DNA of 64,000 nt, taken from Escherichia phage ELT1. Position numbers and translations under genes: made by a program. The stretch is from sequence record MZ892903.1; one strand, written 5' to 3'. The notes beneath the pieces were generated by a model. That model was not told the DNA's origin and searched no databases. It saw only the letters and a list, made by a program, of their open reading frames with translations. Below, in pieces: positions 11,788 through 54,235 of this stretch (positions are counted from its first letter, which is position 1; each line of letters starts with the position of its first letter).

Positions 11788-12138
11788 TTAATATTCTTTT
11801 AAAGCATCAACCTGTTCACGACGTTTACGCCATAAATCAATTGCTTCATACGCGGATTCAGCATTTCGAATTAGCCGGCATTTATGTAAAGACTTATGAT
11901 TTTGATATTGTGTAGATAACGGAATTGTATCTAAAAGGTCTTTACGATCAAAATATTCGTAACCATCTAAACCAAATGAACGATTTTTGAGAAATTGCCA
12001 ATGACCATATTCGTTTTCGACATAAACATAATCTGCATGCTGATAAAGCAAATTAATTACACGTTCAGAAATAACAGTATCATTATGATTAAAATAGAAT
12101 GTTAAATCATGAACTACTAAATAAACATTACCTTTCAT
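11788..12138 (-). CDS. hypothetical protein
   Basis: ORF 11788..12189; better RBS (GAGGA) before internal Met at 12138. Confidence 0.4.
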   Translation of the reverse strand: MKGNVYLVVHDLTFYFNHNDTVISERVINLLYQHADYVYVENEYGHWQFLKNRSFGLDGYEYFDRKDLLDTIPLSTQYQNHKSLHKCRLIRNAESAYEAIDLWRKRREQVDALKEY

Positions 12139-12217
12139 ATTTTCCTCACTTAAAGTTGGTGCCTCTAGAAAGATTTGAACTCTCACCATTAACCTTAGAA
12201 CGATTATATGCTATCCA

Positions 12218-12889
12218 TTACACTATAGAGGCAATTAAATTATTTACAATATCTTCTTTATAAACTTCAGCATAATGAAGTTCATATATTTCCCATCCTA
12301 ATGATTTTATAATATCATGGCGTTCTTTATAATAAGGGGCCAAAATCTTTTTCTTAGGATTGGAGTAATGTTGGTTTCCATTAACTTCAATAATAATCTT
12401 TTTATCTATTAAAGCAATATCCGCGCAATACGCTCGGTTTTTAACCGGTTGGTATTCTTCAATAAATGAAATTCCGTTTTCTATTAATTTAGATTTCAAA
12501 AATTCACAAGGCACAGATTTAAATTTTGTATTTTTCTTCCAAGGATGTTTATCGGGGTTTTCATTCAACCATTTTTTCCGAGCATTAGATATTTTTATTC
12601 TAGATTCCTCAGAGTGTTCTCTACCTAATGAAGCGGCTGACCATTTTTGTCTAGTCTCTTCCGAAATTACTACAGGAACACCAGTCTTTTTAGATACAAC
12701 ATACTGGTTTAAATTACCTGAAGCTATACGTGCTTTATTCATTGCTGCAATGGCTGATTTAGAACTTTCTTTATACAATTCCAATTTAGGGTTGGATTTA
12801 CACCATCTAGTGTGGTTAGCCATCCATCCTTTAGGTTTATTAGAAATATCAAATTCCATATTACAATGTTTACAAATTCTCATTACCAA
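12218..12889 (-). CDS. putative freestanding homing endonuclease: N-terminal Zn-finger-like, NUMOD3 motifs, C-terminal Vsr/DUF559-like (PD-(D/E)xK) domain
   Basis: 223 aa; CKHC...HTRWC; NUMOD3-like LGREHSEESRIKISNARKKW; C-terminus ...YCADIALIDKKIIIEVNGNQHY...ERHDIIKSLGWEIYEL; no GIY-YIG motif although it sits where T4 has segB. Confidence 0.55.
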   Translation of the reverse strand: MVMRICKHCNMEFDISNKPKGWMANHTRWCKSNPKLELYKESSKSAIAAMNKARIASGNLNQYVVSKKTGVPVVISEETRQKWSAASLGREHSEESRIKISNARKKWLNENPDKHPWKKNTKFKSVPCEFLKSKLIENGISFIEEYQPVKNRAYCADIALIDKKIIIEVNGNQHYSNPKKKILAPYYKERHDIIKSLGWEIYELHYAEVYKEDIVNNLIASIV

Positions 12890-12957
12890 TTATCTCCTAT
12901 AAAATATAGGAGTATTTATTATTTGGATAGAGCACTTAATTTACTTCGTTTAAATTA

Positions 12958-13029
12958 CTGGCGCACTTGGACTCGAACCAAGATAAAGGAGTTAACAGCT
13001 CCCCGTAATAACCTTTATACGATGCACCA
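12958..13029 (-). tRNA. tRNA-Asn (anticodon GUU), 3-bp D-stem, no encoded CCA
   Basis: Manual fold: acceptor TGGTGCA/TGCGCCA (one G-U), T-arm CTTGG-TTCGAGT-CCAAG, anticodon loop CTGTTAA. Confidence 0.55.
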
Positions 13030-13035
13030 TTTGTT

Positions 13036-13110
13036 TGGTGACCCTGGCTGGTTTCGATCCAGCTACCTATCAGTTATGAGCTGACAGCTCTCCCATTGAG
13101 CTACAGGGCC
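13036..13110 (-). tRNA. tRNA-Ile (anticodon CAU, T4 tRNA-Ile type; Met/Ile formally ambiguous), CCA encoded
   Basis: Acceptor GGCCCTG/CAGGGTC, anticodon loop CTCATAA, T-arm GCTGG-ATCGAAA-CCAGC. Confidence 0.7.
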
Positions 13111-16194: not shown

Positions 16195-16195
<1 letters not shown>

Positions 16196-16920
16196 TATAG
16201 TACCTTTAGTGTATTTTTAATTTTAGAAAAAAGTTCTTCAAGAGAACCATCGTTTGTAATTACTAAATCGCCATCACGAATTGGCAATCCAGCTTCTGTA
16301 ATATGTGTATCATTGGATTTTTGACCAGGACGAACTACATGAATTACTGTAGCACCCATCGCCCTAGCCGCATCCATTTCATGATCTTGACGGGTATCAG
16401 GAACGATATAATAATCATAACCTGAGTTAAATTTATCAAGATAATCTAAAGCAAATAATTTTACCCAGTACATGCGGTCGAAGTTATTAACAATCAAATC
16501 CGTACCTAGGGCTTGCATCAGACGACGGACTGACCATTGATCTTCAATATTATTTATAACGTCAGCAATCTTGTTAAATGCTACGGAATCAACTGATTCT
16601 TGTCCTTCGTCCTCAAAAACACACACACCTTTAATTGGGCTTTTACTATTAAGATAGCAAAATGCTTGTTCCATAATCGTGATTACTTCTGATTTAGTCA
16701 GATTTAAATTAGTCTCACGATCATAGTCAATTCCTTCAAACTCTTTACGAGTTAAGCAAGGATAGTCAGTGTTTTCTGCAAATACACCCCATGCATAAGC
16801 CAATGCATCTTTAATAGGACCAGCAAGTTGATATTTAACCGCAGAATAATTGCTCATGATAAAATCAGCAGTAGTATCTTTTCCACTACGCTTTACACCA
16901 CTTAAAAAGATTAGTTTCAT
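16195..16920 (-). CDS. 1: deoxynucleoside monophosphate kinase (gp1)
   Basis: 241 aa, P-loop GVKRSGKDT; T4 gp1 length and position. Confidence 0.95.
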
Positions 16921-16969
16921 ATGTTTCTCCTCAAATTTAGTTAAGATTATAACACATGAAACTGAAGCA

Positions 16970-17500
16970 TTAAACTTCTGCTATAATTTTGCCATCTTTT
17001 TCTACTTGAAAATACGTATAAGGAATCGTTGCTGTACATACTAAAGCTGGGTCTGAATCTTCCGTGTAGCTAAATTCTACTTCAGACAAGTCAGAAACCC
17101 AAGGCTTATAAAAATTTATTGACATCACGATTTCAGTTTTACTATTATCTAAAATGTAAAGCGTGATGTATTCAGGACCTGTTTTTTGGGCAGTATTTTC
17201 ACCTGTAAGATAGTTGCTAGTTCCTAGCATCCATTCATACATTCCTATCCACGACTTAAGCTCTTCATCAACTATAAATCTCACAATGAGTGGGTCGTAC
17301 TCAAATGTAACACCTGGACGTTGTGCTCGGCCCAGTCCAAACGGCCCAGTCACGGTATCAGTAACAGGTATTCTAATTCCTGGAATAGGAACTGACTGAG
17401 CATTTAAAGTAAAAGCAGATGTAGTATTACTATGCGGTATTGATACTACAAAGTTAGTTGTATTTGCTTGGTTAAAAATTTGTTGTAGTGCTTGCGACAT
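16970..17500 (-). CDS. 3: tail completion / sheath stabiliser (tube terminator) gp3
   Basis: ORF track gives 16970..17581; Met 17500 has RBS GAGGA and gives 176 aa (T4 gp3 length as recalled). Confidence 0.8.
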   Translation of the reverse strand: MSQALQQIFNQANTTNFVVSIPHSNTTSAFTLNAQSVPIPGIRIPVTDTVTGPFGLGRAQRPGVTFEYDPLIVRFIVDEELKSWIGMYEWMLGTSNYLTGENTAQKTGPEYITLYILDNSKTEIVMSINFYKPWVSDLSEVEFSYTEDSDPALVCTATIPYTYFQVEKDGKIIAEV

Positions 17501-17606
17501 ATATTCCTCATAATGCTTTATAAATGTTGGTGGTATAATGGGTCTAAGTCCCTTCCATTCAATTCCAATTAGAACAAACAATAGAAAAGAATGGAAGATA
17601 ATAGAA

Positions 17607-18281
17607 TTAATTTATTAGACTTCTTAAACGAGCAGAAGTCATAAATGGAAATTTTTCTAAAGTTGGCTTTCGCCAATATCTTGGATGACAAGTTGATTTA
17701 AAATCAAGAACAATTTTCTTTGCTTCATCAATAGTGTTAACTCCAAAGTTATCTAACATTATTTTCTTTTCTTTTTCCCACCGTTTATTAGCTAAAGCAG
17801 ATTGAAGCTTTTTGTTTTTAAATGTGTCATTTTTTCTAGAATGAGTTGTTCCTTGTGTCGGACTCCATCCTCTTCCTAAAATAAATCCCTCAGGAATTAT
17901 ATCTCCATCATGTAATTTTATACATCTTTTACCATTATTATAATATTTTCGTCCAGTTTGTGTATTTGAAATATTATTTGCATGTTTTCTTTTTAACCAA
18001 CCATAAACTTTATTATTTCTCCTAACATATTTAGTTGAAACCGTCATTTTTATGGCTGCATAAGATAATTTTAAAGAATTTGGGTGTATTTTTACTAATA
18101 GCTGATGTGCAACATAATGCTCTTCTGGAGTTAAATCAACCAAGTTAGAAGCATCATTACTACCGCCTAAACATTTCGGAATAATATGATGTCTTTCTTT
18201 ATATCCAGTAAGGGCTCTATTGCGAGCCCTATCAATTAGTGAATTATAAATTTTTTCATAATTCATCGTACATTGCTCCAA
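17607..18281 (-). CDS. freestanding HNH homing endonuclease (mob-like)
   Basis: 224 aa; HNH motif [32 protein letters not shown]; inserted between genes 3 and 2. Confidence 0.8.
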
Positions 18282-19090
18282 ACTTTGTTTGCAGAGAAAC
18301 GTTTTCCTTTGGAGTAGAAGCTTTGGAGTGGCATTAACACAACGTTCGCCCAGTCTTTCGGGGCGATTTCAACAAGGCTACCCATAATATTACCAGGTAT
18401 ATATGCCTTAATCATTTGGTCTGCACCTCTAAATCCTTTCACTTGACTCCAATCAATTTTTAATTTCGTTTTATTAGTAATAGTAGGTGTATTTGCATAT
18501 TGCTTTAAAAGCTCTTCTAGAAATTGCTGACGAGCTTTAGGTGGAATATAGTGCAAGTTCAATCCGTACATTAAATTGTGTTTACCTAAACCGAGGTAAA
18601 TTATCAAAGGAAATTTATCCCAATAAGGAAGAGTTTCTTTGTGTTTAGCATCATAAGCAAAAGCATATATTCGTCCCGGCTGCGGGCGAACAACTTTATG
18701 TCCTTTTACCTGCTTAATAGTTTCAGCAAACCACTTTCTGGTTTTATTATTAATTGCTGCACCTTCATTACGAATTTTATCACGCAACGTTTGCCTGAAT
18801 GAATTTATCATAAGCAGTTGTCTTTCTTGCTTATTGAGTTTATTCATTGGTTTTGATTCAAGCTTTTGAATCTTTTCAGCCGTTTTAATTCCTGAAGCAT
18901 ATTTTGACATTGCCGAAGTAAACGTAGAGTATTTGATTCCTCTTTCTTCAGCAAATTGCTTTCCTGTCATTCCTTTTGCTTTGGCCTTTTTGTATTCAAG
19001 ACCTATCTGAATCCATTTCTTTTCGTTTAATGATTGCTTAACCTTTGGAACTTGGGGAGTGCTTTCATTAATTATTTGAAAAATAGCCAT
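18263..19090 (-). CDS. 2: DNA end protector protein gp2
   Basis: 275-aa ORF in conserved 3-2-4 block. Confidence 0.85.
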
Positions 19091-19542
19091 TATGCCCCCT
19101 TAAAGCCAAGAGCTCGTAATCCATCTTCTGTTAAAATTCTAAATTTTATTCCACGCTTTTCAGCTAAAGCTTGAGCTGCTTTCCATTTGTCAGTATTAAC
19201 TGAATATGTATAAATTTCATTCATAAATCTTTTCTTCGCTGCAGTTGTTAGATGTGCTGGTTTAACTGGTGGTTGTGTTTCTTTTTTAGGCTTTATTTCA
19301 ATAAAAAATTCTTGTCCAGAAGAATCTTTCATCCAAATATCCATGAAGTATCTACGTTTTTTCCCTTCTGCATTACAAAAATAAGGAATTACTGCTGTTT
19401 CACTACCCCATGCAATAATTTCTGGATTTTTATCTAACCATTCAAAAAAGAATTTTTCCCAATTTGATCTATACGTAATTTTTTTAGGGTCACCTCTATA
19501 CTTTGATATATTTTTAGGAACCCATTTTCCAGAATATGCCAT
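19090..19542 (-). CDS. 4: head completion protein gp4
   Basis: 150 aa; conserved position. Confidence 0.85.
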
Positions 19543-19553
19543 TGGATTCTCCT

Positions 19554-19576
19554 TATAAATAGATAATATATTTATA
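19554..19576. promoter_or_regulatory. divergent late promoters: TATAAATA (+, gene 53) and TATTTATA on + (TATAAATA on minus, gene 4)
   Basis: Exact TATAAATA at 19554-19561; reverse-complement copy at 19569-19576. Confidence 0.6.
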
Positions 19577-19589
19577 AACAGGAGGGCCC

Positions 19590-20180
19590 ATGCTCTTTAC
19601 ATTTTTTGATCCGATTGAATATGCGGCCAAAACGGTGAATAAAAACGCGCCGACTATTCCTATGACAGATATTTTTAGAAACTATAAAGACTATTTCAAA
19701 CGCGCTCTTGCGGGATACCGCTTACGTACTTATTATATTAAAGGTTCACCACGCCCGGAAGAATTAGCAAATGCTATATATGGAAATCCACAGTTGTATT
19801 GGGTTTTATTGATGTGTAATGATAATTATGATCCGTATTATGGATGGATTACTTCACAGGAAGCTGCTTATCAAGCATCTATACAAAAATACAAAAATGT
19901 AGGTGGAGACCAAATAGTATATCATGTGAATGAGAATGGTGAAAAATTTTATAATTTAATATCATACGATGATAATCCATATGTTTGGTATGATAAAGGC
20001 GATAAAGCTAGAAAATATCCTCAATATGAAGGAGCACTTGCTGCGGTCGATACGTATGAAGCTGCTGTTCTTGAAAATGAAAAACTTCGTCAAATAAAAA
20101 TAATAGCAAAATCAGACATCAATTCATTTATGAACGACCTTATACGTATAATGGAGAAATCTTATGGAAATGATAAGTAA
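19590..20180 (+). CDS. 53: baseplate wedge protein gp53
   Basis: 196 aa; synteny. Confidence 0.9.
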   Translation: MLFTFFDPIEYAAKTVNKNAPTIPMTDIFRNYKDYFKRALAGYRLRTYYIKGSPRPEELANAIYGNPQLYWVLLMCNDNYDPYYGWITSQEAAYQASIQKYKNVGGDQIVYHVNENGEKFYNLISYDDNPYVWYDKGDKARKYPQYEGALAAVDTYEAAVLENEKLRQIKIIAKSDINSFMNDLIRIMEKSYGNDK

Positions 20181-21925: not shown

Positions 21926-22420
21926 ATGGAAGGTTCTTCTATCGACGTCACCTTTACCGCTCAATTAGAAACAGGTGAAACGTTAGTATCTATAAATATA
22001 ACTAGTTACGAAGAAACTCCTGGGGTTTTAGTAGAAGAAAATCGTTTATATGGAACGTATGAATCTGTGTTTGGATTTGGAAATGACGCACTAAAATATC
22101 GTTTAGATAATGAATTTAAAACTGCTGCTTCATGGGAAGACCTTCCAACTGATTCTAATACTCAGTTATATCTATGGAAAGCTCCTCAAAACCTCCAGAA
22201 GACATTCACTTACGAAGTAACATTAATATATGACTATCAAGAACAAAGTGAATCTGGAGGTTCTGGTAGTAATTCTAGGTCATCTTCTGATACTACTGAA
22301 CCAACGGATCCTCCTGCTCCAATAAGAAAAACTCTTGTTAAAAATTACACAAAAACTATAGTTGGAAATTGGAGTCGTTGGGCTAATAAATTAAGAAGCT
22401 ATGTATATGAGAGGCAATAA
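21926..22420 (+). CDS. 5.1: gp5.1-like protein
   Basis: ORF 21863..22420 overlaps gp5; start at Met 21926 has RBS AGGAGA. Confidence 0.55.
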
Positions 22421-42127: not shown

Positions 42128-42165
42128 TTGATTATGGGGCTTCGGCCCCTATTCTCGAGGAAACA

Positions 42166-42784
42166 AGTGATTATTTCTAAGTTTGTTAAAGTGAAAATTG
42201 TACCATCAAATTTTAAACATTATCAATCAAAGGGTTATAAATTAACACCTCTTGGAGCGGTTAAACATGGATTTAGGTATTATGAAATTGATGTTAAAGT
42301 TGAAGACATTAAAGGTAGTACCGCGTATGTAAAATGCCGTTGCGATAAATGTGGAATTGAATATAACCAACGCATTGGAAGAAACACTGATATTTGTCGT
42401 GATTGCCGTCATAAAGATAAAATGCGCAATAATTCATATGGTTCCGCGAATAAAGGAAAAACAGTAGAATGTATGCATGGCGTAAATCATCCAAGATGGA
42501 ACCCAAATAAATCTGAAATGCGTGAATATATTTCATTGGTATATAAAGAAACTCGTAAGCATAAGAAAATTTGGTCAAAATGGCCAAATGCTGATAAAAT
42601 AGGAGTGTGCGGTACAAAAGGTGCTTACCAACTTGATCATAAGGTATCTATCAAATACGGTTTTGATAATTTAATTCCTGCTGAAATAATTGGCGGTATT
42701 AATAATTTAGAAATAATCACTTGGGAATCTAACCGAGAAAAGTCAAAAAGAAATAGTGTAGATCTTTGGGATTTACTAGAATGA
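42166..42784 (+). CDS. freestanding HNH endonuclease with CxxC zinc-binding pairs
   Basis: ORF track 42128..42784; first codons overlap a GGGGC-UUCG-GCCCC hairpin, so GTG 42166 (RBS AGGA) is the likelier start; C-terminal HNH-like ...YQLDHKVSIKYGFDNLIP...NNLEIITWESNREK; CRCDKCG...CRDCRH. Confidence 0.7.
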
Positions 42785-53617: not shown

Positions 53618-54235
53618 ATGTACCACTTTGTATATGAAACAACAAATCTAATAAACGGTAAAAAGTATATAGGAAAGCATTCTACTGACGACTTGAATGA
53701 TGGTTACCTTGGTTCCGGTAAGGCAATTCAGCAGGCTATAAAGAAATATGGTGAAAACAATTTCTCTAGAAAAATACTAAAAGAGTTTAAAACTTCCGAA
53801 GAAGCGTACATGTATGAAGAAGAAATTATAACTCCTGAACTAATAAAAAGCAAAAATTATTATAATATGAAACCCGGTGGAATTGGTGGAATTGTTATGA
53901 CTACAGAGGTTATAGCAAAGATGAAAGAATCTTCCGCTAAAAGATTTGAAAACTCACCAGGCACGGTATTAGGTAAAACTTGTTACACTAATGGAACTAA
54001 AAATATTTTTATTAAACCTGGAGAACTTGTTCCAGAAGGATTTGTAAAAGGGATGGTTCATCCTAATAGAAAGTCTAGAAAAGGATGTAAAGTTAAACCG
54101 ACTACCACAGGAACTTTTTGGGTCAATAATGGCGTAATAAATAAATTAATACAACCAGACGGTATTATTCCCGACGGATTTATTAAAGGTCGTCTCATGA
54201 AAAGAGACTCTAAAGGCAAATTTAGTAAGGCATAA
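53618..54235 (+). CDS. segE: GIY-YIG homing endonuclease SegE-like
   Basis: 205 aa; N-terminal ...FVYETTNLINGKKYIGKH...; basic C-terminal region; located between inh and uvsW. Confidence 0.8.
   Translation: MYHFVYETTNLINGKKYIGKHSTDDLNDGYLGSGKAIQQAIKKYGENNFSRKILKEFKTSEEAYMYEEEIITPELIKSKNYYNMKPGGIGGIVMTTEVIAKMKESSAKRFENSPGTVLGKTCYTNGTKNIFIKPGELVPEGFVKGMVHPNRKSRKGCKVKPTTTGTFWVNNGVINKLIQPDGIIPDGFIKGRLMKRDSKGKFSKA

Follow-up and report, generated by a model that had tools for sequence, protein, structure and literature searches.

What is the reading frame with an HNH motif that lies between genes 2 and 3 of Escherichia phage ELT1, and did it arrive there as a mobile gene? The question arose from a sequence-only reading of 64,000 nucleotides of this phage (record MZ892903.1; this whole stretch is called the window here), which proposed that a candidate intronless homing endonuclease is inserted into a conserved gene block and that it could mediate marker exclusion of the gene 2-3 region in mixed infections. 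From sequence comparisons, the best explanation appears to be a homing endonuclease gene of the T4 Mob type that is free-standing (intronless), and we give it a probability of about 0.8. Support for the candidate comes from its presence and absence at a single site, the low diversity of the insert, decayed copies, orthologs linked to gene 2, and homology to MobD and MobB.

Gene order, empty site and distribution

The window is a segment of a Tequatrovirus (T4-like) genome, and its positions 16900-19600 match Escherichia phage EC.W14-2 at 99.1% and RB32 at 98.1%. The ORF listing contains the proposed frame between genes 3 and 2, within the block 4-2-ORF-3-1, and the HNH motif that was pointed to earlier corresponds to residues 26-54 of the ATG-started protein. 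The strand, however, had been misread. The ORF is on the minus strand, along which the order is gene 4, gene 2, the endonuclease ORF, a 106-bp non-coding stretch at 17501-17606, gene 3 and gene 1:

16195-16920, minus strand: gene 1
16970-17500, minus strand: gene 3 (tail tube terminator / sheath stabiliser), the downstream neighbour, with a Pfam Phage_T4_gp19 family match and the RB32 and T4 annotation
17501-17606, minus strand: 106-bp spacer native to the gene 2/gene 3 junction, downstream of the endonuclease in this phage
17607-18281, minus strand: mechanical call of the endonuclease ORF, 224 aa from TTG
17607-18266, minus strand: candidate free-standing HNH homing endonuclease gene, 219 aa from ATG
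18263-19090, minus strand: gene 2 (DNA end protector), the upstream neighbour, 275 aa versus 274 aa in T4
19090-19542, minus strand: gene 4

The length of 224 aa first given for the product is correct for a frame opened by the TTG at 18281, but translation probably begins at the ATG at 18266, for a product of 219 aa, because all orthologs begin with MNY and because RB32 and other records are annotated in this way. Direct reading of the sequence shows that this ATG overlaps the gene 2 stop codon as ATGA (cgATGAat), and there is therefore no spacer upstream of the endonuclease ORF. The 106-bp stretch that had been taken for the gene's own upstream spacer lies downstream of its stop codon, and equals the native spacer between genes 2 and 3.

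As the sequence-only reading had stated, T4 has no gene at this place: in NC_000866, gene 3 occupies 75424-75954 and gene 2 occupies 76061-76885, with nothing between them. The intergenic spacer has the identical length of 106 bp in T4, P922, GEP001 and BF15, all of which are without the endonuclease, and its sequence is nearly unchanged between the window and T4 or P922. Alignment of filled and empty sites places the insert relative to T4 at 17611-18269 of the window (~659 bp). With intact genes 2 and 3 on either side of the ORF and a plain 106-bp spacer at the empty T4 site, the gene has the arrangement of a free-standing one. The native spacer (17501-17606, minus strand) holds a hairpin with a 10-bp stem, TCTTCCATTC…GAATGGAAGG, and the whole spacer folds at -21.8 kcal/mol; spacers in other genera (loci L088 and L106) have terminator-like GC hairpins instead. 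A possible target-site duplication was also considered, in which the endonuclease 3' end (…AAGTCTAATAAATTAA) would be a copy of the gene 2 3' end (…AAGTCTGGTCAAATATCTAA), but the orthologs have no such resemblance and it was attributed to chance.

Altogether 665 phage records match the region, ~505 of them at Tequatrovirus-level identity, and 37 of these ~505 carry the ORF (~7%), three decayed copies included. A tblastn search returned 37 records with a protein of 95% identity or more, and an 80-nt junction probe found 37 carriers among 509 records. Copies occur in RB33, HY03, e11/2, fPS-2 and CAM-21 among others. An ortholog at this position is not a general feature of the group, as T4 and ~93% of the Tequatrovirus records are without it. 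The window protein is 100% identical to RB32ORF146c (ABI94970.1) from the RB32 record DQ904452, and other records label the same gene as homing endonuclease, HNH endonuclease or mobB. Two mob-like endonuclease genes were counted in RB32 by Petrov et al. 2010 (PMC2993671). The novelty implied by the sequence-only reading is thereby lost: the identical protein has been annotated in RB32 since 2006 and appears as a homing endonuclease in many records, and the gene is an already known and ordinary case. A literature search for experimental work on this endonuclease gene found no paper.

The encoded protein and its HNH core

As judged by its homologs, the endonuclease ORF is a real gene and not a chance ORF, because it matches PHROG 655 ('homing endonuclease') with E=1e-58 and has 2933 homologs in the databases. 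The widespread part is the N-terminal module, which was found in these 2933 database proteins and at 196 IMG/VR loci; the C-terminal half is confined to a small clade. Residues 1-75 are 53% identical to T4 MobD (E=3e-23), and mobB and mobE of T-even phages show ~45% identity across residues 1-114, so the comparison with the mobA-E family that had been proposed as a check establishes homology of the N-terminal module. A Foldseek search against predicted viral structures returned T4 MobB (E=2.9e-11) and also matched MobC. The Pfam HNH and HNH_5 matches fall below the curated cut-offs.

Seven residues (E24, H26, H27, N41, E49, H50 and H54) are invariant in an alignment of 31 homologs. Loss of the HNH catalytic residues, which had been named in advance as an objection, is thus not what careful alignment reveals; the residues are intact. 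The family profile aligns the HNH core to the HNH domain of McrA (EcoKMcrA) with E=0.0017, as well as to the group II intron maturase HNH, while a single-protein sequence search of solved structures gave nothing significant, the core being found by profile search only. In an AlphaFold2 model built from the 31 homologs (mean pLDDT 88.9), strands at 24-27 and 42-45 and a helix at 47-60, all at pLDDT 94-97, are predicted to form a beta-beta-alpha-metal core. The conserved HH…N…H residues on this strand-strand-helix core place the protein among the HNH (beta-beta-alpha-metal, His-Me finger) nucleases.

Beyond the core, the model has a beta-hairpin at 107-118 followed by a helical C-terminal region. 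The predicted layout consists of an HNH nuclease at residues ~1-75, a linker with the beta-hairpin at 104-132, and a helical, presumed DNA-binding region at 152-219. The C-terminal 134 residues had no match in Pfam at E<=10, the C-terminal half gave nothing informative against solved structures, and it has no sequence similarity to the Mob proteins. Some relatives in the family carry NUMOD3 and I-HmuI-like Pfam domains.

These results bear on whether the frame might be spurious, or might encode a packaging-type HNH accessory such as those beside cos-phage terminases. The location among the head-completion and packaging-related genes 2 and 4 would suit an accessory of this kind. However, thousands of homologs and the strong homing-endonuclease profile match speak against both possibilities, T4-type phages package by headful and most of them do without the gene, and the domain layout is that of Mob proteins, unlike terminase-associated HNH proteins. 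Given also the distribution of the gene, its absence from T4 and the MobD homology, we regard this explanation as effectively refuted.

Signs of mobility and the 3' end of gene 2

Sequence diversity was compared among ten carriers and four non-carriers. Carriers differ by 0.56-0.92% within the insert versus 1.7-3.5% in the flanking genes, and nearly all insert variants are singletons. In the flanks, polymorphisms are common to carriers and non-carriers up to ~25 bp on the gene 3 side and ~70 bp on the gene 2 side. Divergence between carriers and non-carriers is 10% at 18200-18400, versus 2-3% elsewhere, where it equals the within-group diversity. The low diversity of the insert together with the shared flank polymorphisms therefore indicates an insert of recent common origin on unrelated backbones. 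An element that is less diverged than its backbone, and unlinked from it, carries the signature of horizontal spread. The composition of the insert is also foreign, with a GC content of 29.4% versus 35-37% in genes 1, 2 and 3.

Three of the copies are decayed. In CT01, an internal deletion of ~486 bp leaves a 57-aa remnant, and in FL23 and FL44 a 1-bp deletion splits the ORF. Polymorphic presence at one site along with decayed copies is a pattern of homing endonucleases, and the decayed copies fit the stages expected of a homing endonuclease life cycle. As a separate observation, Salmonella phage Manna (L092) has a single 1296-bp CDS annotated at 1570-2865, taking in the endonuclease, gene 3 and the 106-bp spacer between them. 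The Manna locus is 1 bp shorter than that of other carriers, with variants at the window-equivalent positions 17612 and 17617; the CDS may be a genuine read-through fusion, or else an artefact of sequencing or annotation.

Outside Tequatrovirus, gene 2 is directly followed by full-length relatives with 46-65% identity in Citrobacter phage NM4.3 (Moonvirus), in UPEC07 and VR7 (Gaprivervirus) and in Serratia phage SP1. Of eight metagenomic contigs that were examined, seven also have such a relative directly after gene 2; the remaining one (L104) ends 30 bp upstream of the endonuclease, and its visible neighbour is gene 3 on the downstream side. On contig L105 the downstream neighbour is gene 4-like rather than gene 3, and gene 2 is therefore the constant partner of this endonuclease lineage. 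Stop and start codons overlap or abut in all orthologs checked (ATGA, TAATG, TGATG or TAAtATG). Values of dN/dS relative to the window copy are ~0.14-0.34 in both protein halves, with synonymous sites near saturation; on these ratios, the orthologs are under purifying selection.

Related HNH endonuclease genes are also located upstream of gene 4, between genes 53 and 4: in the Jiaodavirus Klebsiella phage KEN25_1 (L089, 2001-2669) a more distant paralog (43%), and in the Gaprivervirus UPEC07 (L087, 46-753) an endonuclease gene in addition to the one after gene 2. The neighbourhood of genes 53-4-2-3 therefore appears to be a recurrent landing zone.

Could the gene be an inactive relic, which once homed and now hitchhikes in the late operon toward loss? 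We consider this unlikely. Its occurrence in only ~7% of Tequatrovirus records, the internal deletion in CT01, the frameshift in FL23 and FL44, and the Manna record in which endonuclease, spacer and gp3 form one CDS would all fit a relic. On the other side, the window copy is full length with all invariant HNH residues, and protein identity is 99% or more for 34 of the 37 copies. Cross-genus dN/dS is low in both domains (0.14-0.34), the stop/start coupling is kept in all orthologs, and an insert far less diverse than its backbone suggests recent spread over old decay. Some or all copies could be inactive even if the gene is of the homing type, given the ~7% frequency and the decayed copies.

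The reading as a homing endonuclease gene directs attention to its left junction, where the last codons of gene 2 differ between filled and empty sites. The features of this region are:

18263-18266, minus strand: ATGA overlap of the gene 2 stop codon TGA and the endonuclease ATG, from direct sequence reading
18263-18281, minus strand: recoded last gene 2 codons, from filled versus empty sites; left junction of the putative mobile unit
18276-18279, minus strand: GGAG Shine-Dalgarno-like motif, 9 nt upstream of the endonuclease ATG
18311-18326, minus strand: gene 2 substitution cluster, QSFY versus QQFV in T4, 45-60 bp upstream

Gene 2 of the carriers ends in GTT TGG AGC AAT GTA CGA TGA (…VWSNVR*), versus GTC TGG TCA AAT ATC TAA (…VWSNI*) in T4, and this recoding is restricted to carriers. 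The GGAG motif arises through the change of a gene 2 Ser codon from TCA to AGC (TGGTCA in T4, TGGAGC in carriers), and the recoding also produces the ATGA stop/start overlap. In empty genomes, this end of gene 2 is presumed to be part of the target.

The QSFY cluster was found in all carriers, and also in ~15-21 Tequatrovirus genomes without the endonuclease, e.g. FL12, SG1 and T4_ev151. Such genomes combine QSFY with T4-type last codons and an empty site; in the three named (L107, L108 and L109, respectively) the end of gene 2 is at locus 2001-2069. Because QSFY is also present in endonuclease-less genomes, it represents a linked haplotype and is not strictly part of the insert. In those genomes it could be an ancestral recipient allele, a product of partial co-conversion, or the trace of a precise loss. 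For the same reason the cluster at 18311-18326 cannot serve as proof of target immunity, a role for which it had been considered.

Expression, a model of homing and known systems

Two further features concern the expression of the gene:

19569-19576, minus strand: T4-type late promoter motif TATAAATA, just upstream of gene 4
18211-18230, minus strand: GC-rich 7-bp hairpin AGGGCTC GCAATA GAGCCCT, at endonuclease codons 13-19, ~-13.5 kcal/mol

The motif TATAAATA is the only perfect late motif on the minus strand between 16900 and 19650, and the 4-2-endonuclease(-3) transcript presumably starts from it. Within the endonuclease or the spacer there is no perfect T4 late motif; TATAAAGA at 18196-18203 has one mismatch. 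A scan for sigma-70 promoters and terminators over 16900-19650 gave counts that were not above shuffled expectation. We infer late transcription together with genes 4 and 2, and translation coupled to gene 2 because of the ATGA stop/start overlap.

A strong hairpin (-11 to -18 kcal/mol) is present at about the same place in 10 of the 12 gene-2-associated orthologs. Besides the window, it occupies the same codon positions in L086, L087, L088, L099-L103 and L106, with stems of 8 and 10 bp in L100 and L101, respectively. The ortholog hairpins include shifted registers, compensatory changes and even different amino acids. As the stems stand in shifted registers between orthologs, a synonymous-recoding test was chosen over column-wise covariation. 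Eight of the 12 orthologs had p<=0.02 versus synonymous recodings of the same peptide (300 recodings each). In the wider family, 50 non-redundant members with the RAxNRxL motif had a median of -4.35 kcal/mol, and 18% of them had p<=0.05 (100 recodings each); the hairpin is mostly absent from the wider HNH family. An A/U-rich hairpin over the AUG in the window was also considered and set aside, as it is not conserved in the orthologs. The CT01 deletion begins at the internal hairpin. The insert shifts the native post-gene-2 spacer hairpin 660 bp away, and the internal hairpin may restore the post-gene-2 structure while limiting endonuclease synthesis.

A more far-reaching interpretation treats the lineage as settled for the long term at the 3' end of gene 2 throughout the T4-like genera, and as regulated there. 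Its translation would be coupled to that of gp2 in every case, and a selected hairpin would replace the displaced native one, end or stabilise the gene 4-2 message and throttle the endonuclease, with the nuclease aiding competition or anti-defence. We regard this combination as rather unlikely.

It is quite unlikely that the gene is a co-opted nuclease which benefits the phage and is not purely selfish, whether by interference with co-infecting relatives, by blunting a break-sensing host defence, or through a role in the handling of DNA ends with gp2. That the lineage has long resided at the 3' end of gene 2 in several genera, and has kept its coupling and internal hairpin there, would favour co-option, as would published cases of phage homing endonucleases that were reported to aid competition or attenuate defence (PMC11620839; bioRxiv 10.1101/2025.09.07.674715), but those two studies deal with other endonucleases. 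The decayed copies and a patchy occurrence within genera make an important function less likely, T4 and most relatives thrive without the gene, and nothing links the protein physically to gp2.

The preferred reading, a Mob-type homing endonuclease gene, leads to the following model. The gene would be read late in infection within the gene 4-gene 2 message, and ribosomes ending gene 2 would restart on the endonuclease via the ATGA overlap. The product combines an N-terminal HNH module common to MobB, MobD and MobE with a lineage-specific C-terminal half that would bind DNA. During mixed infection, the enzyme would attack the empty allele, by a nick or a cut, where gene 2 ends and the spacer begins or close by. 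The candidate cleavage site, which is placed solely by where carrier and empty alleles differ, would lie in the T4 region …AAAGTCTGGTCAAATATCTAA / TTCTATTATC…; in carriers this region is split by the insert at the slash, with its left half recoded. Recombination-dependent repair from carrier copies would bring in the 659-bp gene and the recoded last gene 2 codons, and the outcome would be biased inheritance of the gene 2/3 region. Anatomy, homology, distribution and the population-genetic signature are shown by the comparisons made here, whereas nuclease activity, cleavage site and biased inheritance are put forward as what they suggest.

As a gene, this one carries little weight, being one more catalogued Mob-like endonuclease in a phage group already known to be full of them. 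For experiments it could be a handy system: empty and filled alleles are told apart by a clean insert of 659 bp and by a handful of recoded codons in an essential-region gene. Decayed copies are available in nature, and some genomes without the endonuclease have part of the carrier haplotype. The orthologs in several genera lend themselves to the study of target co-evolution, and the hairpin together with the universal gene 2 coupling offers a testable model of self-tuned endonuclease expression that would spare the late structural operon.

Several other endonuclease-related differences from T4, and likenesses to it, were noted in the window. At 42128-42784 (plus strand), 656 bp that T4 lacks are inserted between the tail sheath gene (18) and gene 19, and this insertion encodes a 218-aa ORF with CxxC…CxxC and an HNH-like C-terminus ('LDHK…NNLEIITWESN'). 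This ORF matches PHROG 5104 ('unknown function'), had no match in Pfam, and is present in 47 of the 672 records of related phages, where 'hypothetical protein' is the usual annotation; it is probably a second, poorly annotated free-standing endonuclease. The tRNA region at 11788-13065 differs in content from that of T4, which has segB there: a 223-aa ORF at 12218-12889 (minus strand) has weak DUF559/Vsr-like and NUMOD3 matches, and a 133-aa ORF at 11788-12189 (minus strand) matches PHROG 3355 (unknown function). T4 segC and gene 5.3 (T4 80215-80778) are missing at ~22419-22420 of the window, where the flanks join directly. Just upstream of uvsW, as in T4, a SegE-type GIY-YIG endonuclease is encoded at 53618-54235 (plus strand; Pfam SegE_GIY-YIG, E=6e-9), and its '…G..IP.GF.KGR' repeats weakly resemble residues 92-132 of the HNH protein.

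Among known systems, RB32ORF146c and its copies represent the same gene, in the same position after gene 2 and with the same ATGA overlap. The RB32 protein is 100% identical, and nothing of substance sets the two genes apart; within the ORF there is one synonymous difference, at 17913 of the window. The T4 MobA-E proteins have an N-terminal HNH module homologous to that of the window protein. Like the window gene, the T4 mob genes are intergenic, sporadic and embedded in a host operon (PMC2988022), and the window protein fits the modular plan described there for Mob proteins. The insertion sites differ: T4 mobA-E are located at 60.1/39, alpha-gt/alpha-gt.2, nrdG/nrdD, nrdC.11/mobD.1 and nrdB/nrdA (PMC2988022), whereas the window gene follows gene 2. 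In further contrast to the Mob system, the window gene is without its own promoter, appears to be coupled to gene 2, and encodes a dissimilar C-terminal half.

The I-HmuI-type HNH nicking endonucleases share the N-terminal HNH domain and the plan of an extended, modular DNA-binding part. They are intron-encoded, which the window gene is not, and beyond the HNH core no significant sequence or fold match to solved structures was found here. Control of homing-endonuclease expression by hairpins has been established for mobE and the Tev enzymes (PMC2988022). Aeh1 mobE and I-TevI, like the window gene, have a stable hairpin near the 5' end, but the mobE and I-TevI hairpins sequester the ribosome-binding site, whereas the hairpin of the window gene is located 36-56 nt downstream of the AUG.
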